A DNA stretch of 64,000 nt from an uncultured delta proteobacterium (lineage in GTDB: Bacteria > Desulfobacterota > Binatia > UBA9968): contig CAWJZV010000030.1 in NCBI GenBank assembly GCA_963847445.1, positions 320,001 through 384,000 of the forward strand. The letters are read 5' to 3'. A program made the position numbers and the translations under genes. Numbering within the stretch: position 1 is the first letter of the stretch; every line of letters begins with the position of its first letter. The notes beneath the pieces were generated by a model. The model was not told the DNA's origin and did no database searches. It saw nothing but the letters and a program-made list of their open reading frames with translations. Below are positions 439 through 13,001 of this stretch, piece after piece.

Positions 439-1485
439 ATGAAACTTCAACTTGGATTCCGACACTTGCTGCTTTGCTGTCTGATGACAACAGCGGTGCC
501 CGCCTTCGGCGCCCAAACGGTCACTAAAGTCGTCATGACCAGCGGCTCGTTCAGCGAACGGGAAGCGGCCATGTACGTGGCCCAGGATCAAGGGATATTC
601 CGCCGCTACGGTTTGGAACTGACCTTTGTCACCGTGCGCAATGGACCGGTCGGCATGGCGGCACTCGCCTCGGGTGAAACCCAGTTCCACTCCGGCTCGG
701 CCACTGGCGCGGTGCTCGGCTCCGCCGCCGAAGGCATGGACATCGTCTTTGTCGCCGGCATCATCAACAAACTCATCGGCAACATCATGGCCTCGCCAAA
801 AATCAAAATCCCCGCGGATCTAAAAGGCAAAACCATCGCCGTCACCAGCGCCAGCGGTGGCAGCTGGATGTTTACGACACTGGCGCTCGAATATTGGGGC
901 CTGGACGCCAAGCGCGACGGCATCACGTTTCGCATACTCGGCGACGAGTCGGTGCGCAGCCAGGCGCTGCTCAATGAAAGCGTCGCCGCGACGCATTTAG
1001 GCTACACCTTTTCCGCGCCGCTCATCAGCAAAGGATTCACCAATCTCGGTGACCTCTCCAAGCTGCCGATTCCGTTCCAAAGCACGGGTATCATGACCAC
1101 TCGGCGCTACATGAACGCCAATCCCGAGATCATCGAGAACGTCCTTCGCGGCGTGGTCGACGCGTTACAGTTCGTCGAAAAACCGGAAAACAAGCCGGCG
1201 GTGCTGAAAAGTCTAATGAAGGGGTTGCGGTTGAAGAATGTTGAACAGGCGATGGAAGGCTACGACACCCTGGCCAATATCTACGAACACAAAATCTACC
1301 CGCGCGCCGACGGCGTGCGCAATGTCATACGCTTGCTCGGCCAGACCAATGAGAAGATCCGCAAACTCAAAGCGGAAGAGTTAGTCGATGACCGGTTTGT
1401 CAGGAAGCTGGAGAAGGAAGGCACGGTTCTAAAAGCCATCTCCGAGATCCAACATGTAGGAACGCGATTTATCGCGCCCTTTTGA
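439..1485 (+). CDS. ABC transporter substrate-binding protein, NMT1/THI5/SsuA-like
   Basis: Signal peptide; YVAQDQGIFRRYGL and DLKGKTIAV motifs. True stop probably TAA at 1432 (EKEGRF*), lost through a 1-bp insertion near 1423. Confidence 0.85.
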   Translation: MKLQLGFRHLLLCCLMTTAVPAFGAQTVTKVVMTSGSFSEREAAMYVAQDQGIFRRYGLELTFVTVRNGPVGMAALASGETQFHSGSATGAVLGSAAEGMDIVFVAGIINKLIGNIMASPKIKIPADLKGKTIAVTSASGGSWMFTTLALEYWGLDAKRDGITFRILGDESVRSQALLNESVAATHLGYTFSAPLISKGFTNLGDLSKLPIPFQSTGIMTTRRYMNANPEIIENVLRGVVDALQFVEKPENKPAVLKSLMKGLRLKNVEQAMEGYDTLANIYEHKIYPRADGVRNVIRLLGQTNEKIRKLKAEELVDDRFVRKLEKEGTVLKAISEIQHVGTRFIAPF

Positions 1486-1596
1486 CGTTACCACCTCACG
1501 CCAGCCATTGGGCGCAGTGAATTGCGAGCCTACAGAAACGACCCGAATTAAACGGGATTGGTCATGTAGGATGGGTGGAGCGAAGCGATACCCATC
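1456..1596. repeat. GTAG-type REP/REPIN-like palindromes
   Basis: GTAGGAACGCGATTTATCGCGCCC (1456) paired with inverted GGGCGCAGTGAATTGCGAGCCTAC (ends 1533); third unit GTAGGATGGGTGGAGCGAAGCGATACCCATC (1566-1596). Confidence 0.75.
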
Positions 1597-1611
1597 ATCG
1601 ATTTCGTATGT

Positions 1612-2337
1612 CTACGGCATCTCTTCGAGCAGCTTGCCGAATCCTTTAACTTTCTGCCGAATATGCAGCCGCTTCTGCACCGACCAGACGCGCGCCGGCA
1701 CGGCGTGCACCACGGGAACCTGCAAATCTTCTTCGAGCAGATGGATGATATCTAAACAGCGCCAGCCGGTGCCGAGCATGTAGATGCCGTCGGCGTCGGG
1801 ATGCTTGAGAAACGCCTGGCGCGTGTGGCCGTAGATTTCGGTCGAGGCTAGACGGCCGACATCGGCGAAGTCGACTTTCATCCCTTCCATCGCCAACACT
1901 TCGAAGCCGGCTTCCTGAAAGTAGCGGCTGAACATGTCGTTGATGCTGCCGACGAAGTAGGTCACGCCGACGAACTTCTTCACGCCCAACGCGCGCAGCG
2001 CTTCGACCTGGGTCTGCGCCGCGGTGACGATGGGAATTTTAAATTCGTCTTCCCACTCTTTGGTGATCTTCGCTTCGCCCTTGAAGCCTTGGATCATGAA
2101 CGGCGGCGCGCCTTCGGGGTGGATCAAATCGACGCCTTCCTTGGCAAGCTCGGCGACTTTTTCGTGAACAGCGTTGAGTGCCGCGCCAAATTCGTCTTCG
2201 GTGCCGCGCTTGAAGTTCAAATACACCGGCACGACGCCGACGCCTTCCGGCATTAACCGGATGAACTCTTCCAACGACCCCGGCCGATGGGTCGGTTTGA
2301 CGACCCCGACCACGCCACGCCAACTGGTAAAAACCAT
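1612..2337 (-). CDS. Maleate cis-trans isomerase / arylmalonate decarboxylase (Asp/Glu racemase) family protein
   Basis: EFIRLMPEGVGV, ALRALGVKK..VTY, YFQEAGFEV, DADGIYM, LEEDLQVPVV pattern. Confidence 0.8.
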   Translation of the reverse strand: MVFTSWRGVVGVVKPTHRPGSLEEFIRLMPEGVGVVPVYLNFKRGTEDEFGAALNAVHEKVAELAKEGVDLIHPEGAPPFMIQGFKGEAKITKEWEDEFKIPIVTAAQTQVEALRALGVKKFVGVTYFVGSINDMFSRYFQEAGFEVLAMEGMKVDFADVGRLASTEIYGHTRQAFLKHPDADGIYMLGTGWRCLDIIHLLEEDLQVPVVHAVPARVWSVQKRLHIRQKVKGFGKLLEEMP

Positions 2338-2343
2338 AAATCA

Positions 2344-2439
2344 GTTCCAATCGTTCCAGGGGTTCCAGTCGTTCCAAGTGTTTCGGAGGCTTCGGGTTTT
2401 ACCATTGGAACCTCTGGAACTCATTGGAACGATTGGAAC
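2344..2439. repeat. Inverted array of 9-bp units (GTTCCAnnn x4 / nTGGAAC x4)
   Basis: GTTCCAATCGTTCCA is the exact reverse complement of TGGAACGATTGGAAC (2425-2439). Confidence 0.85.
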
Positions 2440-2448
2440 CGTCTTCGT

Positions 2449-3918
2449 TTATTTAAAGATCTGCGGAAACTTCGCCTTCATCTTAACGCGGTAATCTTCC
2501 GGCACTTCAACAACCTTGGGAAACTCGCCCTTCAGCTTGCGATTATACGGCTGGCAAGCGTCGATCAAGATGCGGTTGTTGAAATTGCCCGGCAAGAACA
2601 TCGGGTCGCGCCCAGACGACCAAGCCTTCTGCACCAAGTCTATGTCGGTGATCGGATCGAAGCGAGTGCCCATGGCCCAGAGCACTTGATCGATGTCCGA
2701 GCAGTCGACATCGTCGTCGACGACCACGGTCCACTTGCCGTTGTAGGCGCCGGCCATGCAGTTGGACGCGACGTGCAACACGTTGCGCGCGTGGCCGGGA
2801 TAGCGCTGGCGGATTTGAATCGCCGTGAAACGGGTCGCCGGCGCGCCTTCGTGGTTCCACACGCCGAGAATGTCGGGCAAGCCGCAAGCTTCCAGCGCGT
2901 TCCAGATCTCCGCCGCCCCGGCGATGCCTTTGAGCAGGCCAGTTTCATCCACCGGCTTATGCTGCGGCGCGCAGGTGAGAATCGGATTGTTGCGGTACAT
3001 GACGGTTTTCACATTGAGATAGGGGCGCGGCACGACATCGTCGGAATAGTAGCCCATCCATTCGCCGAAGGGTCCTTCGGGCTGCGTCTGTCCCGGCACG
3101 GCTTCACCTTCGATGACGATCTCGGCATCGGCGGGAATCGGAAATCCGGTAAAGGGCCCCTTCACCACTTCCACCGGTTCGCCGCGGATGCCGCCGGCGA
3201 AATCATACTCCGACACGCCCGAGGGCAACGGACTGGCGGAAAGCAGATAGAGCAACGGATCTTGGCCGCAGACGATGGCAAACTTGCAGCTCTGGCCGCG
3301 CTCGAAATATTTGTCGCGATGAATCCGCCCATGTTTGCCTTCGGTGATCTGGCAGCCGATGGTCTTGCCGTCGTAAACTTCACAGCGATAGGCGCCGAAA
3401 TTATACCAATCCGCGTCGGGATCTTTGGTGATGCACATATCCGCCGTGCCGACATAACGGTGCGTGTCGGCCTGGTGGTGGATCGGCACCGGCAACTTGA
3501 GCACGTCGACTTTGTCGCCTTCCAAAACGTTCTCGAAGATCGGCCCGGTCTTGACCATCTTGGGCTTAAGCAGCTTCATGTCGGTCATGACATGGTGGTA
3601 GGCCTTGACGATATCGGCCTTGTGTTCGTATTCGAGCGGCAAGCCGAGGGTCAGCGCGACGCGCTTGATGGTTGAGAACTGGCCGTAAAGAGTCCGATAA
3701 CCTTTCGGATAACCCGGCACTTCGTCGAACACGATTGCCGGCGCTTTGCCCTTACCGCCTTCGGTCAGCATCTGCGTGATCGCGCCCATCTCGCGGTCCC
3801 AGTGGGCGCCGTTGACCTCAAGTAACTCACCCATCTTGCCGACTTGCTCGATCCAATCGCGCAAACCGCGATAGGTTACGCTGCTCTGCGCCGCGCCAGC
3901 GCGTTCCGGACGTGCCAT
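2449..3918 (-). CDS. UbiD family (prFMN-dependent) decarboxylase
   Basis: NFGAYR, PADAEIVIEG, EGPFGEWMGYY, VVVDDDVD...VLWAMGTRFDP; RBS AGGAGG. Confidence 0.92.
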   Translation of the reverse strand: MARPERAGAAQSSVTYRGLRDWIEQVGKMGELLEVNGAHWDREMGAITQMLTEGGKGKAPAIVFDEVPGYPKGYRTLYGQFSTIKRVALTLGLPLEYEHKADIVKAYHHVMTDMKLLKPKMVKTGPIFENVLEGDKVDVLKLPVPIHHQADTHRYVGTADMCITKDPDADWYNFGAYRCEVYDGKTIGCQITEGKHGRIHRDKYFERGQSCKFAIVCGQDPLLYLLSASPLPSGVSEYDFAGGIRGEPVEVVKGPFTGFPIPADAEIVIEGEAVPGQTQPEGPFGEWMGYYSDDVVPRPYLNVKTVMYRNNPILTCAPQHKPVDETGLLKGIAGAAEIWNALEACGLPDILGVWNHEGAPATRFTAIQIRQRYPGHARNVLHVASNCMAGAYNGKWTVVVDDDVDCSDIDQVLWAMGTRFDPITDIDLVQKAWSSGRDPMFLPGNFNNRILIDACQPYNRKLKGEFPKVVEVPEDYRVKMKAKFPQIFK

Positions 3919-5078: not shown

Positions 5079-5147
5079 GTCGGTAAGCACTGCGCCATCG
5101 TTTTGTATCTCGAATCTATTTGTCGTAGCGCGCTCGACCTCAACCAA

Positions 5148-5664
5148 ATGGGAAAGAGTTTTTCACCACGAAGTGAATCATGATCTTACGCACGCCCACG
5201 GATAATGAAAATGGATGGGATTCCCTCCATAGGCAGTCTGCTTGACGCGTCATTCCCGCGCACGCGGGAATCCAGGTTAGCCTGCGCCCAATTAGCCTGG
5301 ATACCCGCTTTCGCGGGTATGACGGAACCCAGGTGACATCTTCATTGTGGAGACCCTCCCCTTACAGGTATTTTCTAAGGAGCTCACGAAGATCACGAAG
5401 TTCAGAAATTTGCTCATCCGAACCCTTCGCGTCCTCCTTCGAAAATACACGTGCAGCGATGATCTGCGCATCGATAACGACTCTCTGTTCCGTCATACCG
5501 GCGCAGGCCGGTATCCATCCCGTTCCCGCCCCTGCCGGCCTGCGCCGGCATGACGAGTCTAAGGAATGGCTTCCGGTATTTTCATTATCTGTGGGCGTGC
5601 CTAAGATCATGATTCACTTCTTGGTGAGTTCCTCCGGATAAACAACCAACCACGTGAGACACCC
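5148..5664. repeat. Composite nested palindromic repeat, copy 1 (two inverted copies of the ~200-bp element, 5174-5382 and 5434-5616)
   Basis: 50-bp inverted repeat 5163-5212 / 5578-5627 with 3 mismatches; flanks homologous to 8119-8548. Confidence 0.85.
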
Positions 5665-5694
5665 TACTAGCTAAATCACCGATTCACTAACTCA

Positions 5695-7923
5695 CTATCC
5701 CCGCTGTTTCAGCGCATTGAGCACCTTCTCGGCGGTAATCGGCAGCGAAGTAATCCGCACCCCCACCGCATCCGCCACGGCGTTGGCGATCGCCGCCGCA
5801 GTCGGGATCAGGGCGGTCTCGCCGATGCTCATGCTATTGTAAGGTCCGCTGCCGAACTCGGATTGCAGGATGGTCGTGTGCAGCGGCGGCATATCCTTGA
5901 TGTTGGGAATCTTGTATTCACCGAGATTGGCCGCCAGCACTTTGCCGCTCTCGTCGTAAGCGAGGTTTTCCACCAGGCCATAACCGAAACCCATGGCTAC
6001 GGAGCCGTCGATCTGTCCCTGATGGGTCAACGGATTCAGGATCGCGCCGGTGTTATGCGCGGTGGTGAGTTTGGTCACGCGCACCTCGCCGGTCTCGTCG
6101 TCGACCTCGACTTCAGCGACTTGAGCAACCAACGAGGCCTCGGGCCCATCCGACATGTTGGCGTAATGACCTTCGACCAGAATCGGGCCGCCATTGGCGC
6201 GGGCGATTTCCGCCGTAGGTCATACGCCGCTCGGCCCGTCCGTGGGTCACGCCGCCGTCGAACAGCAGGAGTTCGTCCGGCACCGGCTTGCATCGCCACG
6301 CCGGCAATCTGGAGAATCTCCGCGCGCGCCCGCTGCGCCGCGTTTAACGCCGAGCCGCCATGGACGCGGGTGCTGCTGCTGCCACGGACACCGGTATCTT
6401 TAAGGACTTTATCGGAATCGAGCATCTCCACGGCGATGGCATCGAGGGGCACTTTCAGTTCTTCACCGACGATCTGGCGCATCATCGTGAAGACACCGGG
6501 ACCGGTATCGGTGACCGCCGAAGACAAAGTTATTGTCCCTTCCTCGTCAATGGCAATGCGCGCGTAGGACTCCCCGCCTTTGGAAACCCAGTCGCCGACA
6601 GCGCAGCCGCGGCCGCTATTTTTTTTCTTGGGCTTGGCAAACTCCGACACTTCGACAGCGCGCGCGAGCGTCTCGGTCGCTTTGATATGTGGAATCACAT
6701 GGCCCAGCGGCGACGGGTCGCCATCGTGCATGAAATTCATCCGGCGAAACTCGATGGGATTCATGTTCAAGCGCTTGGCGACGACATCCATGTGGCTCTC
6801 GGAGGCAAACATGCCTTGAAGATGGCCCGGAGCGCGCATGTAGCCCGCCGGCATTGTATTGGTGTAGACATATTTTTCTTCGATCAAACAGTTGGGCACC
6901 CGATAGGGCCCAGGCGCGTCATGGGCGCCGACCAGATAGCCTTGCGGGCGGTAGGCACCGTAGGCGCCGCTGTCGAAAATAAACTCGATATGCTCGGCGA
7001 TCATCAGGCCATTTTTCTTGACCCCGGTCTTGATCTTGATCACCGCGCCATGGCGCGGATTGCCCGCCATCAGCTCCTCGGTATAGTCGATCAACAGCTT
7101 GACCGGCCGGCCGGTTTTCTTAGCCAACGCATAGCAAAGCGCGACATCGTTGCCGTCGCCCTTGCCGCCGAAATCGCCGCCGACGTAGCAGGAATGGACG
7201 ATCAAACTCGCCGGTGGGATCTGCAAAGCGTTGCCGACCTGATCGCGCATATTGAACGGGCTTTTGTTCGACGACCACACTTCCGCCGTGCCGTCGGCTG
7301 TTGACGCGCACCAAGGAACAATGCGGTTCGATATAGGCCTGGTGAATCGCCGGCACGGTGTAGCTGTTCTCGACGATCACGTCGGATTGGCGAAAGCCCT
7401 CTTCGACCACGCCCTTCTTCCAGACCAGGCTGACGAAGACATTGCTCGGCGTATCGATCTTGTGCAGCAGCCCTTTGTAGTCCGCGACATTGGGATGGAT
7501 CAGCGGCGCATCGGGTTTAGCAGCCGCCAATGGATCGATCAGCACCGGCAGTTCTTCGTACTCGACTTCGATCAAATCCAGCGCGGCCTCGGCAACCGCT
7601 TCGCTCTGCGCCGCCACCGCGGCGATTTTCTCGCCCATGAAGCGCACCACGGCTTCGGCCAGCAGCGGCATGTCGATGATTTTTTTGCCGATCTTGGCGC
7701 CGGCGAGATCGGCACCGGTCAGCACCGCAACGACACCGGGAAGCGCGCTCGCTTTGGTCACATCGATTTTTTTAATCCGCGCGTGAGCCAGCGGACTGCG
7801 CAACACTTTGGCCCACAGCATGCCGGGCAAACTTATGTCGACGGCGTACTTGGCGCCACCGCCGACTTTATGCTCGCCTTCGACTCGGGGACTCGGAATA
7901 CCGACGCTACGGATTTCTGCCAT
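5695..7923 (-). CDS. Xanthine dehydrogenase/CoxL-family molybdopterin-binding subunit (several frameshifts)
   Basis: AKYAVDISLPGMLWAKVLRSP, HQAYIEPH, VGGDFGGKG, YMRAPG, QGQIDG, GEYKIP, SIGE across three ORFs. Confidence 0.9.
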
Positions 7924-8118
7924 GATGATTCCCTCGTAAACCTTTCAGAGGTGTCGTGGATAAACCTTAGCTATCGCTAACGGCTTCAAGTTCTGCAAAA
8001 TTATTTGCGTTAGCCAATGATTGTATTTGCATCGCAACTGTTGTGAGAGAGTTACATCAACCCCAAATTCACCGCAAGCTCTCGGCGGAGGAATCCCATG
8101 GACGACGTAAAAGGAGAG

Positions 8119-8548
8119 ATGGGAAAGAGTTTTTCACCACGAAGTGTTTATGAGCTTACGCTCGTCCACCGACTATGAAAATGGATGGCATCCCCTCCAA
8201 ATGCTCCTGTCCTCGACTCGTCATTCCCGCGCACGCGGGAATCCAGGTGTCGGACACAGTCCGTCATACCGTTGAAAAACGGTATCCAGGTGGGGATTAG
8301 CCTGGATACCCGCGTGCGCGGGTATGACGGAACCCATGTGTCTAATCGTTGCGCAGATCATCCACGCACATATATTCTCGAAGGAGTAAACGAAGATGCA
8401 TTAGAAGCGCGAAAGTCAGCAGGGCCGCTTTTTCGCCCTTACTTCGATCATCCGAACCCTTCGTGGCCGGAGTCTGTGGTGAGCGTAGTCGAACCATGAA
8501 CTTCGTGGTGAGCGACTCCGGATAAATGACTAACAGCGTGAGACACTC
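8119..8548. repeat. Composite nested palindromic repeat, copy 2 (one ~240-bp element, 8145-8386)
   Basis: Starts ATGGGAAAGAGTTTTTCACCACGAAGTG, identical to 5148; shares TCATCCGAACCCTTCG and CTCCGGATAAA...CGTGAGACAC ends with copy 1. Confidence 0.85.
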
Positions 8549-8596
8549 CACCAGAATTCGCGCCCGCTAGTTTGCGTCTACCGTGAGCATCAACGA

Positions 8597-11500
8597 TCAA
8601 GTTCGATTGCTGCGTTCTGGCGGCTGCAGACGACTCATCAGTTCGCCGAGAAGACCCGAGTCGATCATTTCGCCGTTGCGGTAAGCGAGGGATTGATTGG
8701 AATAGGGCGAGATGCGCGGCCCAGGGGTCAGTATCCCGGCAAGATTCAGTGGATCGGCGGCGGCCAGCAATATTTCGCTGGTTGCCGCTTGGCCGCGGCG
8801 CAACTCACGCAAGCGCTCCACCGCCGCCGGCAAGGCAAACTGCTCACCGACAAAGCCATTGACAAAACGGCCGCCGCGGATCTCGCCGCGCGCTTCCAAG
8901 CGGCGGTAAATCGCCAGTAAATTACGCCAACTGCCCCAGCAGCCATTGCTGGATTCGCGCGCCAATAGGTCGCGAAACACCACGCCGTAGCGCTGTAACA
9001 GCTGGCGCGCCTGGCGTTCCATGCGGCTCGTGCTGCTGACTTCTAGTTTCGAGAATTGCCCGCGCCACAGCGACCAGCGGCCCGCCGGCATGGCCCGCTC
9101 GGAATTGCGCCCGCCGCTGATCAAGCGCAGACTGCGGCGCCGTTCGACACGCTTGTGTTCGGGAGTCAGGAGCACGCGTAAGCCGGCGATGCCGTCGCCG
9201 CTGGCTAACCCATGAGCGACCAGTTGCCAGAGCGCCTCTTCGACTTTCACTTTGAGCAGGCCGGTGTCGCGGGCGATATCGGCGAGAAAAGACGCACCCC
9301 GCTGCTCAAGATAGCGCGCCACCTCCAGCGCCATGGCCGACAGGCTCGGGATATCGGTGTAGCGGCCGTGCATCGGTTCGAGATAATTTTCCAGCTCGTC
9401 ACGCAGGATAAAACCGATGGGCGCATTGCGCGCCGGCGCCAGCAACCGTTTCAACCTTTTGCCGGAAGTAGTCTTCGGCTGGCTGAGCTCTTCGGGCAGA
9501 GTATCGTTGCGCAGCCTGCCCCACGCGACGATGCCGCCTAGACAGAGATACTCCAGGTCGGCGGGGTCGTAAGTTTCGATGCGCGCCGGCAGCACATGCT
9601 GCTCCCAGGCCGGCGCGGGCAATTCCAAGCCCTGTAACTGTTCAATGACCCGCAGCACGCCGTCGCGGCCGCGCAATCTGCTGCCAGGCGCGGCATGCTG
9701 CCAGTGAATGAGAAAATTGACGAAGTCGGCGGCCGATACCGGTTCGATCTCGCGGCGCATCTTGCCCAGGGTCAAACGATGAATGCGCGCGAGCAAAACC
9801 CGATCGCACCACTCGACGGCTTCGCCATCTTGGCCATCTTGAGCATCTTGGGCAATTTGGGCGCCAAGAACGCGCCCGGTGAATTGGCCGCGCATCGCCA
9901 CCCCGGCGCTTTCCAAGGCGAGCAGCGCGGCGGCGACTCTATTGACCGGCAGGCCGATGCGCGCGGCCAGCGCCGCGGCGCTGATCGGCCCGCTCACTTC
10001 GAGCCAGCCTTGAACGATTTTCTTGACGGCGTCTTCCGCCGTCGCAAGGGTCTCGGCAAAACCGAGCGGCAGCGCGATCGCCGGCGAGAAAGAAACCTCC
10101 GGTAAACAGATCTTGATCAAATCGACTCGCTCGGCGGCGATGATGGCGCGCTGCGTGCCATTTGAATCCTGCCAGGTCGCGACCGTCGCGCGGCCGCGGT
10201 CGATCAATTCGCCGGCAAGAGACTGCCAATCGCGGCGCAAGTCCGCCGGCAGTATGCATACGCCCAGGAGCAAATCATGCAACTCATCGGCATTGCGTGC
10301 CTCGGGCCAGGCTTGTTTGCAAACCTCGGCGATGGCCTGGGGATCGAGCTGGCCAAACTCCCGGTCCAACCGCGGATCGACCCGGCGCAGCGACACCGCT
10401 CGCGCCCGGCGCTCCTCCAACGGCGCATCGTCGAGGAAAGCGTAGGGATTGGCGTTCAAGATTTCATGGGCCATCGGCGACGGCGCCGGTGTGTCGATGG
10501 CCAGAGTGGCGATCTCGCCGCTGTCGATCTTGGCGAGCAGCGCCGACAGGCCGTCGATGTCCATCGCCTCGTGCAAACAGTCGCCGATGGTTTCTTTGAC
10601 CAGCGGATGATCGGGCAGCTCCACTCCGCCGCTGCGGTTGTCTTGGCACATCACCTGTTCGGGAAACACCGCCGCGAGCAGATCTTCGGCGCGCATGCGC
10701 TGGATCGCCACCGGGATTTTTTTACCGCCGTTGCTGCGCTTGAGCGCCAGTGCGCGGGTCGCGTTCCAACGCCAGCGGTTGGTAAACATCGGCGACGCCA
10801 GCACGGCCTGGGTTAGATTGTATTCGAGGATCGCCGGCTTGAGCATGGCGAACACGTCGCTGAGCGGAAAGGAATGCTGTTCGACGAGCGAGATACAGAT
10901 GCCGTCGTCGGTGGCCGCCGCTTGCAACTCGCGGTCGAAGCTGACGCAAAAACGCTTGCGCAACGCCAAGCCCCAGGCGCGGTTGATCCGCCCGCCCCAA
11001 GGCGCATGGAGAATCAACTGCATGCCGCCGGCCTCGTCGAAAAAGCGCTCGGCGATGATCTTATCCTGCGACGGCACGGTGCCGAGGACGGCGACGGTGT
11101 CGGCGACGTAGTTGACGATCTGCTCGGCCGCGGCTTGGGGCATCGATACTTCGTCCTGAAGCCAGCTCGCCGCCATGATGCGATCGCCGATCCGCTCGGC
11201 CACCGCGGTGCGCAAATCGGCGACCGCCTGAGATAACTCCAGCGTGCGCGCCGGCGCCTCGCCCATCCAGAATGGAATACTCGGCGGCAATCCCTGGGCG
11301 TCGTCGACCCAGACTTTGCCGGAACCGACGCGGCGAATGCGCCAGGAGCGGTTGCCCAACAGAAAAATATCGCCGGCCAAACTCTCGATGGCGAAATCTT
11401 CGTGCACCGTGCCGACAAAGGTCTCGCTGGCAAATTCCACGACATTGTAATCGGCGGTATCGGGAATCGCCCCGCCGTTGGTGATCGCCGTCAAGCGCGC

Positions 11501-13001
11501 GCCGCGGCGCGGCCGCAGCATGCCGTTAATCCGATCGCGATGAATATAAGCGCTGCGCCGGCTGCGCCGCGTCTCGACGCCTTCGCTGAGCATTTCCAGA
11601 ACTTGCTCGAACTCTTGCCGCTGGCAAATCGCGGTACGGATAGGCGGCGCGCATGAGTTGCCACAGCGCTTCTTCGGAAATCCCCTCTTCGTCATTTGCG
11701 CCCTTTGCGTTCTTTGCGGCCAATCTGGAACTCGCCACCGTCGCCACCATCTGCTGCGCCAGGATATCCAGCGGCTTGTGAATTAAATTTAACTTGTCCA
11801 ACTGCCCCTGGCGCACGGCGCGGATCGCCGCGATCGACTGCATGAGATCGTCGCGCGTGAGCGGATAGAAAAGCCCCTTGGGAATCGCGCCCAGCCAGTG
11901 GCCCGAGCGGCCGACCCGTTGCAGCAGCACCGCCAGATTGCGCGGCGAGCCGATATGGCAGACCACGTCGACATGGCCGATATCGATGCCGAGTTCGAGG
12001 GACGCCGTGGCGACCACCACCGGATAATGACCGGACTTGAGTTTCTCCTCGACCTCCAGCCGGGTTTTGCGCGACAGGCTGCCATGATGCGCGCCGACTT
12101 TGTCTTCGCCCAGCCGTTCGCTCAGTTGATGCGCGACCCGCTCGACCAGGCGGCGGGTGTTGACGAAGATCAATGTCGTGCGGTGCGCTTTAATTTGCTC
12201 GACCAGCTTGTCGTAGACCGCCGCCCAGATATCCTGGCGGATGATCGGTCCCAGCTCTTCGTCCGGCACTTCGATGCGCAGTTCCATCTCGCGCTGATGG
12301 CCGACGTCGACGATCGCACAATCAGGTGTACCGTCAGCGCGAATTCGTTTTGTGCCAACCAACAGCCGCGCCACTTCGTCGATCGGTTTCTGCGTCGCGC
12401 TCAAGCCGATGCGCTGCAATGGCCGCTCGGCCAAGGCTGCCAGCCGTTCGATTGAAAGTGCTAGATGGGCGCCGCGCTTGTCCTGGGCGATGGCGTGAAT
12501 TTCGTCGAGGATCAAAGTTTCGGCCGAGCGGAGAAACTCCCGGCTGCGCGCCGAAGTGAGCAGAATATACAGCGACTCCGGCGTGGTGATGAGAATATGC
12601 GGCGGCCGGCGCACCATCGCCTGGCGCTCCCGCGCCGGCGTATCGCCCGAGCGCACCGCCACGCGGATCGACGGCAGAAGAATCCCCTCGCGTCCGGCCA
12701 GTTGATAAATCTCCGCCAGCGGCGCCTGGAGGTTCTTGGCGATGTCGTTGCCGAGTGCTTTCAAGGGCGAGACGTAGACGACGCTGGTGCGCTCCTGCAG
12801 CGCACCGCCGAGCGCCTGCTTGATCAATCTGTCGATGGACCAAAGAAACGCCGCCAGTGTCTTACCAGAGCCGGTGGGCGCGGCAATCAACGTCGCCTTA
12901 CCAGCGGCAATAGACTGCCAACCCGCGGCTTGCGCCGGCGTCGGCTGGTGAAATCGTTCGGTAAACCAGCGCTCGACTAAGGGATGAAATAGTTCGTTCA
13001 A
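8597..13001 (-). CDS. lhr: Lhr-family ATP-dependent DEAH helicase (frameshift near 11620)
   Basis: APTGSGKT, DEIH, SAT, HHGSLS, SLELGIDIG, QRVGRSGH; C-terminal ITNGGAIPD, RGGRFVNGFVGEQFALP. Confidence 0.9.

Follow-up and report, generated by a model that had tools for sequence, protein, structure and literature searches.

What are the non-coding units of about 200 bp that occur three times at the equivalent site of a host palindromic repeat in the genome of an uncultured Binatia bacterium, and by what means could they have come to stand there? The stretch analysed, hereafter the window, is 64,000 nucleotides long (G000:C30:320001-384000), where G000 is the source assembly (7.19 Mb in 48 contigs, 91.8% complete). 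An original prediction, made from the letters of the window, had described a non-autonomous, repeat-targeting element with a 2-bp AG core, possibly mobilised in trans by an IS110-type recombinase, with a structured non-coding RNA as the alternative. We conclude that the three units are very probably non-autonomous deletion derivatives of a bridge-RNA-guided IS110-family insertion sequence (IS), comparable to MITEs (miniature transposable elements with inverted repeats): they keep about 50 nt of its left end (LE) and 13-16 nt of its right end (RE), the bridge-RNA region and the recombinase gene are missing, and hairpin pairs of the REPIN type (doublets of repetitive extragenic palindromes, REPs) stand where these would be. 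What carries this conclusion directly is the size of the family, its constant junctions, its sites seen both empty and filled, full-length elements that share its ends and target, and the covariation of the guide-like stretches.

Repeat units and their palindromic target

The host repeat, here termed P1, is a palindrome of about 75 bp with the architecture TCACCACGAAG-(G)nCACGAAG-nnCACGAAG-GTTCGGA..loop..TCCGAAC-CTTCGTG..CTTCGTGGTGA. The 11-mer TCACCACGAAG, mostly the outer end of P1, occurs 268 times in G000, against 3.5 expected, and the three units of the window are arranged around it as follows:

5163..5173 (+): copy-1 target TCACCACGAAG, outermost heptad on the left P1 arm, corresponding to left target plus AG core of a bridge RNA
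5174..5382 (+): putative miniature IS110 derivative, copy 1, 209 bp
5174-5212 (+): left end of copy 1, TGAATCATGATCTTACGC..ATGAAAAT
5249..5326 (no strand): REPIN-type cargo of copy 1, a REP hairpin at 5249-5277 and an inverted REP at 5296-5326
5367-5382 (+): right-end terminus of copy 1, GGTATTTTCTAAGGAG
5434..5616 (-): putative miniature IS110 derivative, copy 2, 183 bp, at the mirror-image site on the right P1 arm
within 5434..5616 (-): cargo of copy 2, a second REP type, GTCATACCGGCGCAGGCCGGTATCC and CCGGCCTGCGCCGGCATGAC
5617..5627 (-): copy-2 target CTTCTTGGTGA, reading TCACCAAGAAG on the minus strand and differing from the consensus by a single mismatch
8134..8144 (+): copy-3 target TCACCACGAAG, inside a 28-nt direct repeat identical to 5148-5175
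8145..8386 (+): putative miniature IS110 derivative, copy 3, 242 bp, right-end terminus ..TATATTCTCGAAGGAG
8219-8247, 8260-8290 and 8301-8331: cargo of copy 3, three REP hairpins

With a slash marking each joint, the junctions read TCACCACGAAG/TGAATCATGA...TTCTAAGGAG/CTCACGAAG for copy 1, TCACCAAGAAG/TGAATCATGA...TTCGAAGGAG/GACGCGAAG for copy 2 on the minus strand and TCACCACGAAG/TGTTTATGAG...CTCGAAGGAG/TAAACGAAG for copy 3. Positions and junctions thus reproduce those originally predicted, as do the asymmetric ends with AG at both joints, free of terminal inverted repeats, and the inner inverted palindromes, which correspond to hairpin pairs (GTCATTCCCGCGCACGCGGGAATCCAGG and CCTGGATACCCGC....GCGGGTATGAC) within the units. 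Target duplication is likewise lacking. The predicted surroundings hold in part: the target flanks stand, but the string ATGGGAAAGAGTTTTT that precedes copies 1 and 3 is itself repeated and forms the end of a different repeat module, and the units are placed correctly, but both loci are larger composites of several repeat modules each, extending over ~5124-5670 (region A) and ~8121-8555 (region B). Copies 1 and 2 share a 50-nt inverted match at 94% identity (5163-5212 versus 5578-5627), copies 1 and 3 share direct matches of 55 nt (82%), 45 nt (93%) and 37 nt (95%), and a 97% identical relative of copy 1 lies at C24:53748-53965. Within region A, 5163-5627 is a single P1 with one unit on each arm, at mirror-image sites; the cargo of the two differs, so that they reflect two separate events.

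The genome-wide search with both ends that the original prediction had suggested was carried out with LE and RE profiles built from 40 aligned full copies, all of which have the left boundary in common. In the 7.19 Mb of G000, nhmmer recovered 83 LE and 62 RE; 60 LE-RE pairs are spaced 189-277 bp apart, measured from the T of TCACCACGAAG with the 11-nt target included, which corresponds to units of 178-266 bp, and one further pair is 991 bp apart, at C11. The remaining LE have no RE by the model; several carry different cargo, their RE terminus being missed by the model. Junctions are constant, with 51/83 LE directly behind the exact 11-mer and 68/83 behind it at no more than one mismatch, and (C)ACGAAG follows within 14 nt downstream of the RE in 37 of 62 cases; next to an unrelated right flank, or one that is part of a different module, similarity ends at AAGGAG(G). 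The 2-3 nt past the right end vary as P1 spacers do, and the junctions read GAAG/TG and GGAG/G. Models with a target-site duplication (CGAAG, CACGAAG or 9 bp) were rejected because of this spacer-like variation and because an extra GAG would be left unexplained.

The conserved shell of the family consists of an LE of about 50 nt, TG..CATGA.CTTACGC.CG.C.AC.GA..ATGAAAAT, and an RE of 13-16 nt, (T)ATTTTC(G/T)AAGGAG (..ATTTTCGAAGGAG). Behind near-identical LE stand at least three unrelated types of cargo:

REP type 1: GTCATTCCCGC..
REP type 2: GTCATGCCGGC..
Long hairpin: GTAGGATGTGGTGA...

The inner REP pair, which forms the dominant hairpin in the DNA fold of the unit, also occurs solitarily at many loci (matches to query positions 101-180 only). 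The units differ from classical MITEs in their asymmetric ends and the lack of direct duplication, their inner edges sharing only GAAAAT/ATTTTC, and from IS200/IS605-type elements in the lack of subterminal hairpins at both ends, the hairpins nearest the unit ends being variable cargo 55-75 nt from the junctions. One tandem RE/LE junction is present in the genome, at C18:9188. None of the longer G000 elements with both unit ends encloses a gene; the 991-bp pair at C11 holds an intron-like insert. This unit (G000:C11:1-992) carries the insert, of ~770 bp, right after the REP hairpin stem, where it begins GTGCGCCCG and resembles the 5' end of a group II intron. A sigma-70 promoter reading of CTTACG..GAAAAT was rejected by eye on spacing.

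Empty host sites, whose existence the original prediction had called for, are abundant: in 151 of 303 sites with exact CACCACGAAG the following heptad comes immediately, so that at least 151 P1 arms are empty, while a rough regular expression assigned 39 to a following unit LE and 37 to another module and left 76 unclassified, with about 20 more LE among these. We further compared, by their flanks, 18 unit-bearing loci of the nearest relative, G003 (~95% identical over flanking genes), with G000. At L033, orthologous P1 copies with homologous loops are filled in G003 (CGCCACGAAG/unit/GCACGAAGGACGCGAAGGG) and empty in G000 at C46:475741 (CACCACGAAG/ACACGAAGGACACGAAGGG); the pair is exact (GAAG/TG...GGAG/G) and free of duplication, only G/AG at the joint being ambiguous. 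At L028 a unit in G003 is matched by a different module of ~215 bp at the identical site in G000, and the orthologous units at L042 differ by one additional REP hairpin. A second large family of palindromic repeats, CACCACGAAG-GACCTAGCGCGGCACAGCCGCAACC...GCAAAG heptads (e.g., C46:475431-475741 and C24:162205-162506), shares the terminal CACCACGAAG with P1 and at one orthologous site occupies the position of the G003 unit.

Full-length IS110 elements and guide-like stretches

To the question of which enzyme could act on such ends, the relatives of the bacterium offer an answer. A genus-wide search with PF01548 returned 30 loci, 29 of which (L140-L168) were scanned with the LE profile of the units, the thirtieth, G000's own L005, being examined separately. 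The profile matches 3 of the 29 (E 7e-17 to 2e-14): L143 in G009, L159 in G024, which is cut by a contig end, and L144 in G005, on which no claim is built. The G009 element, of 1537 bp, reads tttTCACCACGAAG/TGTGTCATGAGCTTACGCTCGTCCACAGAAGATGAAAATGG.., followed by ~240 nt of non-coding sequence, a 421-aa open reading frame (ORF) and ..CCAAATTTTCGAAGGAG/GACACGAAGAGCACGAAGG; it begins TGTGTCATGAGCTTACGC..GATGAAAATGG and ends ..ATTTTCGAAGGAG, and its ORF matches DEDD_Tnp_IS110 (PF01548, 1.3e-32) and Transposase_20 (PF02371, 2.7e-18). Its first bases, last bases, target and orientation are identical to those of the window units. The elements of G401 and G345 (80% protein identity), in other genera of the same family, also stand after CACCACGAAG, and in G401 a unit's LE begins right where the RE of the IS ends. 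Across the class, a protein search found a G009-type recombinase in 27 of 401 genomes at E<=1e-60.

Related genomes thus hold autonomous elements with the ends and target of the units, encoding both DEDD_Tnp_IS110 and Transposase_20. The original prediction had named as refuting results a lack of empty host sites, variable junctions among other copies, or the lack of an autonomous element sharing the ends; none of the three occurred, and its proposal of a non-autonomous, repeat-targeting IS110-type element with an AG core is supported. In a related element, L176 (G297:C472), the IS110 is inserted inside the coding sequence of another IS110 transposase, ..GGGGTGTACTGGAAG/, partly matching its guide CTTGGAAG.

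For IS621, Durrant et al. 2024 (PMC11208160) describe left guides, one for the target and one for the donor, whose sequence follows the top strand of target plus core and of donor plus core. We compared 25 related elements, whose LE RNA contains two conserved anchors, each followed by a variable 8-mer. The 8 nt after GAGCCCG agree with the element's own left flank plus core at 7 or more of 8 positions in 18/25 elements, versus 15/494 non-self comparisons, and the 8 nt after GAGCACG agree equally well with the element's own right end plus core in 20/25, versus 27/386. In elements whose best match is the junction, the left-guide match lies 104-124 nt upstream. The following elements illustrate the 8-mer after GAGCCCG beside the element's own left flank:

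G009: 8-mer CCACGAAG, left flank CACCACGAAG
L174: 8-mer CAGAGCAG, left flank CAGAGCAG
L179: 8-mer TGCGTTAG, left flank TGCGTTAG
L193: 8-mer GTAACGAG, left flank GTAACGAG
L175: 8-mer CGCACCAG, left flank GCACCAG
G157: 8-mer ACACAGAG, left flank ACCACAGAG, host heptads CGCAGAG

After GAGCACG, 8-mers equal to the element's own RE terminus plus core are CGAAGGAG, CGAGGGAG, CACATGAG, CTTCTTAG, CTTGGTAG and CAGGGGAA. In polarity, the guide-like stretches read as those described for the left guides of IS621. In the sister genus (L172, G157:C65), the palindrome is built of CGCAGAG rather than CACGAAG heptads, the IS110 stands after ACCACAGAG, and the guide is changed to match. A script assigned an AG core to 19 of 23 elements; among the four exceptions, L185 and L196 are register slips of the script, L185 reading AA by eye, and L197 and one other are ambiguous.

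The window copies fit G009-type guides. The target of copy 1 matches the guide-like stretch CCACGAAG of G009 at 8/8, left flank plus core reading CCACGAAG in copies 1 and 3 and CCAAGAAG in copy 2. The right-end terminus is CGAAGGAG in copies 2 and 3 and CTAAGGAG in copy 1, and the G401 and G345 masters likewise end in CTAAGGAG, although their guide reads CGAAGGAG. With regard to RNA structure, RNAalifold surrounds the first guide with a GGUC/GACC helix and an inner hairpin, with compensatory change in 5 of 9 pairs, and a helix of at least 7 pairs (7-12 bp) that would close the second (donor) loop is present in 24/25 elements, in about ten different sequences of the helix, the non-self control being confounded by relatedness.

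Proposed mobilisation in trans and competing explanations

From the mechanism established for IS621 (Durrant et al. 2024) we infer that the units form circles, that the RE-LE junction is recognised and that insertion takes place in trans at the AG core. A full-length copy would provide recombinase and bridge RNA in trans, and these would join the ends of a unit into a circle whose junction would read ..TTTTCGAAGG-AG-TGAATCATGA...; the donor loop would read this junction, with CGAAGGAG as the left donor guide, and the target loop would read CCACGA-AG, the outermost P1 heptad, with CCACGAAG as the left target guide. Strand exchange at the AG core would then insert the unit in one orientation and without target duplication. 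P1 has the site on both arms, so that one palindrome can take two mirror-image copies, as at 5163-5627.

The unit was matched in all 24 congeneric genomes sampled (E<=0.001), with full-length unit copies in at least 8 of the 24. G003 is without the whole region A composite and without most of region B, and G014 likewise lacks everything from ~5124 to 5670. At the position of region B, G014 and G021 (L020, L021) have an intact small gene of ~110 aa, MDDVKGQMEGVTRVYTELDNK... (MDDVKGQMEG...), of which the window keeps only the first 17 nt (~8098-8114) and G003 a truncated stump; the repeat array of region B appears to have replaced this gene. A search for the LE pattern in contigs of public genomes yielded 94 stretches; among the 80 titles listed, 74 are metagenome-assembled genomes labelled Deltaproteobacteria, Thermodesulfobacteriota, Candidatus Binatia or Syntrophobacter(aceae), and 6 have other labels.

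We also compared the window with Logan contigs of four public runs, which are assembled contigs rather than raw reads. None of the runs held half or more of the sampled words, so the source sample is probably not among them, and parts of the window without cover carry no meaning. Depth was ~1000-3000 (X1, X5, X6) and ~180-350 (X3) over repeat bins, and ~0-55 over the gene. A contig of X1 joins 5129 to 5684, the whole region A composite being missing, and contigs of X5 join 5435 to 5623 with only TC between, so that copy 2 is missing, a weak case with repetitive sides. Joints with short repeat sides, or at the likeness setting used, may stem from other loci, and we place weight on the X3 contig only, because one of its sides is anchored in the flank. 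This contig carries 166 nt of the upstream flank of copy 1 with 4 differences, its outer part unique and its inner part repeat module, and then joins 5166 to 5385, which counts as an empty site at the window's own locus; it contains 7 ambiguous letters and 38 nt of the far side.

Several observations weigh against a guided, IS110-derived origin with mobilisation in trans. The X3 contig lacks the unit plus one heptad, as slippage between the flanking CACGAAG repeats could also produce, and no circle junction was seen in the assembled contigs of the public runs. The left guide agrees at just 5/8 positions in two elements and 6/8 in five, and the right-end guide at fewer than 7/8 in 5 of 25, four of which (L173, L179, L181, L196) have a cut or doubtful downstream flank in the fetched sequence. 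For the right-hand guides (right target guide, RTG; right donor guide, RDG), 7-mers complementary to core plus flank gave no consistent position. RNAalifold recovered only the target-loop helices and failed on the donor loop, because the alignment register differs between clades, and the full-length elements had no Rfam match at E<=1. Finally, just as the window holds no recombinase, which had been noted at the outset, the cognate recombinase and bridge-RNA region were not found in the G000 assembly: the class-wide protein search found no G009-type recombinase there, and tblastn of the recombinase returned nothing at E<=1e-3. Homology of G000 DNA to the element is confined to its positions 1 to ~60 (34 loci), apart from a single decayed remnant, at C24:185459-185556, that reaches position 113. 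The one DEDD_Tnp_IS110 match of G000, on C15, was rejected as a master, since it is cut by an IS3 element and has ends unrelated to the unit. The copies in this strain may therefore have lost their mobility, though completeness of the assembly is 91.8% and insertion sequences are commonly lost in assembling.

These points leave room for a fossil family, in which IS110-derived units became immobile in this strain after loss of the master and in which differences in presence stem only from deletion, for instance by slippage between flanking CACGAAG heptads, and from turnover of whole repeat arrays. We judge this unlikely, though far from negligible. The failure to find the recombinase and bridge-RNA region, the sole decayed remnant, the X3 allele without unit and heptad, the window composites missing from G003 and the many copies that are only 70-85% alike would all agree with it. 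Against this stand copies that are 96-97% alike, the L033 pair, nucleotide-exact without heptad loss, and the full-length masters that persist in congeners, while the missing master is to be seen in the light of an incomplete assembly broken at repeats, with unit copies at the contig ends C5:52 and C11:1. Another possibility, which we regard as very improbable, is a single entry into P1 followed by spread of the P1::unit composite, the constant position being a matter of common descent. P1 itself is highly amplified and most units do occupy the same position in it, as the 37/62 RE followed by (C)ACGAAG illustrate, but the same orthologous P1 is seen with and without a unit, one P1 of the window has two units of different cargo, one per arm, and some units follow TCACCACGAAG without P1 on the right (e.g., C46:463651 and C45:67949); full-length elements, moreover, use the same site and carry a matching guide. 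Nor did any of the 11 examined pairs of P1-type ends in G000, spaced at 0.7-4 kb, enclose a transposase; the largest frames of 7/11 look like ordinary genes by eye, no Pfam search being involved.

The REP and REPIN hairpins of the cargo bring to mind a Y1 (HUH) transposase of the IS200/IS605 or REP-associated tyrosine transposase (RAYT) type. Elements mobilised by Y1 enzymes likewise have neither terminal inverted repeats nor target duplications and insert 3' of a short motif; the genome also holds a RAYT-like gene flanked by one cargo type (G000:C39:625-1152) and two longer Y1_Tnp genes. However, three unrelated types of cargo stand between the same ends, the hairpins are 55-75 nt away from these ends and not just inside them, REPs also occur solitarily without the shell, the C39 gene scores below the Pfam Y1_Tnp cut-off (21.3 versus 23 bits), and the unit ends are those of an IS110 element; none of the 4 Y1_Tnp matches of G000 is bounded by unit ends. 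Mobilisation by such an enzyme is, in our estimate, even more improbable than joint spread with P1. Least probable of all is the structured RNA that had been offered as an alternative, or a regulatory element, kept by selection and not mobile: the unit does fold better than shuffles (z = -3.3), and its left end is well conserved, but the fold is dominated by REP cargo that varies between copies, a window-wide Rfam search at gathering thresholds matched no family to the units, copies are gained and lost among 95% relatives, and what is conserved coincides exactly with insertion-sequence termini. We found this alternative unsupported and return to the IS110-derived miniature element as the preferred reading.

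As a side observation, the C39 locus (C39:509-1250, L004) comprises a 175-aa Y1/RAYT-like ORF (625-1152) with an HUH-like LPEHLHCIW motif and GTAGGATGTGGTGA.. hairpin pairs on both sides, a layout that reads as a classical RAYT/REPIN arrangement at the subthreshold score given above. A RAYT flanked by GTCATTCCCGC-type REPs was not found among the G000 Y1_Tnp matches.

Locus surroundings, known systems and significance

The remaining modules of the two composites are the following:

5124..5162 (+): leftover of a different repeat module, ..TAGCGCG..CAACCAAATGGGAAAGAGTTTTT, bounding the region A composite on the left
5383..5433 (no strand): P1 palindrome core of region A, CTCACGAAG ATCACGAAG TTCAGAAATTTGCTCATCCGAAC CCTTCGCGTC, with the architecture of empty P1 copies
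5628..5670 (no strand): another repeat module, GTTCCTCCGGATAAACAACCAACCACGTGAGACACCCTACTAG, right edge of region A, with a direct repeat at 8512-8554
8387..8511 (no strand): degenerate P1 remainder of region B, ending in CTTCGTGGTGA (8501-8511)
~8468-8500: extra 33-bp insert of region B, at the mirror-image site of the P1 remainder

The ..TAGCGCG..CAACCAAATGGGAAAGAGTTTTT module is often found upstream of P1 and precedes CACCACGAAG at many loci, and the GTTCCTCCGGATAAACAACCAACCACGTGAGACACCCTACTAG-type module also stands before CACCACGAAG elsewhere in the genome, in reverse-complement form. The 33-bp insert, TTCATGGTTCGACTACGCTCACCACAGACTCCGG on the target strand, resembles part of the unit LE (TACGCTC.CC.ACAGA) and recurs after CACCACGAAG at C17:178814, with a variant form at C4:186345; possible readings are a footprint, a micro-derivative and an element of its own. 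Between the two loci, at 5695-7923 (-), lies a xanthine dehydrogenase/aldehyde oxidase family gene that encodes the molybdopterin-binding subunit, split over three overlapping frames (5695-6156, 6075-7280 and 7120-7923). Contigs of the public runs are one letter shorter than the window at 6210, 6281 and 7300, so that the frameshifts may be indel errors of the assembly and not the mark of a true pseudogene. Downstream, at 8597-11695 (-), a 1032-aa ORF has Lhr-type DEAD_assoc and winged-helix domains and no helicase core in the Pfam scan, and may be a truncated or split Lhr gene.

The closest known counterpart is the pair MITEPpu9/ISPpu9 (IS110 family) of Pseudomonas putida KT2440. As far as the pertinent sections of Pares-Guillen et al. 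(NAR 2025, PMC12288879) go, MITEPpu9 is present in 8 copies, carries the small RNA gene ssr9 and would, by the authors' proposal, move once it is given IS transposase in trans, and ISPpu9 inserts in REPs. Both systems thus combine a MITE-like IS110 partner with a palindromic-repeat target, and MITEPpu9 also has tandem copies just downstream of the IS, as in G401 here. They differ in that the present family counts at least 60 complete copies per genome and is genus-wide, carries REPIN hairpins and no recognisable RNA gene in place of ssr9, was found without a master in the assembly, and has as its target the terminal heptad of a heptad-built palindrome rather than a classical REP.

With IS621, as treated in the corresponding passages of Durrant et al. 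(PMC11208160), the full-length elements share a DEDD plus Tnp recombinase, a left-end non-coding RNA, a 2-nt core at both junctions, left target and donor guides that equal the top strand plus core, and the lack of terminal inverted repeats and target duplication. The same passages describe a 22-bp donor that was built and tested with bridge RNA in trans, a principle of short donor and trans-acting RNA on which a miniature element would depend. Unlike in IS621, the core is AG here (CT on the other strand, a matter of strand naming), and the guide stretches, known here from sequence alone, follow GAGCCCG and GAGCACG. A 2026 preprint (10.64898/2026.08.14.744561), in the portion relevant here, describes non-coding repeat units standing in tandem next to IS110 transposases, together with reintegration of partial IS110 fragments.

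An element of the IS110/IS1111 superfamily offers a further parallel, in that it takes one position and orientation inside the terminal repeat of a host element, both ends of which can be targeted; there, however, the host is a large transposon, and the element is autonomous and belongs to the IS1111 group with subterminal inverted repeats. REPINs and RAYTs, reportedly described by Bertels and Rainey in 2011, resemble the inner layer of the units, an inverted REP hairpin pair that also occurs solitarily, one cargo type flanking a RAYT-like gene, whereas the REPINs here are passengers in an IS110-derived shell and do not define its ends. Elements of this kind are therefore already known; what is new is the number of at least 60 complete copies per genome and their genus-wide spread, the loss of every RNA gene, the REPIN cargo, the heptad-palindrome target and a guide that follows the host heptad between genera. 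Our literature search on IS110 with MITE, non-autonomous or bridge RNA gave the ISPpu9 paper as the only relevant one, judged by the papers listed, and that linking Binatota/Binatia with insertion sequence, REP or MITE gave none among those listed, supplements lying outside both.

We tentatively extend the reading one step further, to a proposal to which we give slightly less than an even chance: that a bridge-RNA recombinase has given rise to a guide-less mini-donor, which outnumbers its master by more than 60 to 0 in the assembly and occurs throughout a genus of soil bacteria, that the guide co-evolves with the host heptad, and that the units serve as landing pads for REPINs. If this is true, some 50 nt from the left end and some 15 nt from the right would suffice in nature for RNA-guided mobilisation in trans, and the apparent tracking of the host heptad by the target guide (CACGAAG versus CACAGAG in the sister genus) would amount to natural reprogramming of a bridge RNA that follows a moving safe-harbour repeat.

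Bridge recombinases are in development as programmable genome-writing tools, for which natural evidence on the needs of the donor is useful: the family suggests that a few dozen terminal bases suffice as donor and that unrelated cargo is tolerated, and the clade supplies natural guide/target and guide/donor pairs with an AG core, among them a guide that follows a change of host repeat. For annotation, the Shine-Dalgarno-like AAGGAG and short ATG frames of the units call for caution, as they may mislead gene callers. For the organism itself, the family explains a large share of the repeat load and the rapid intergenic turnover in this uncultured soil lineage, in which, if the extended proposal is correct, nests of three to four layers (REPINs and, once, a group-II-intron-like insert) would turn over faster than the flanking genes and could erase small genes.

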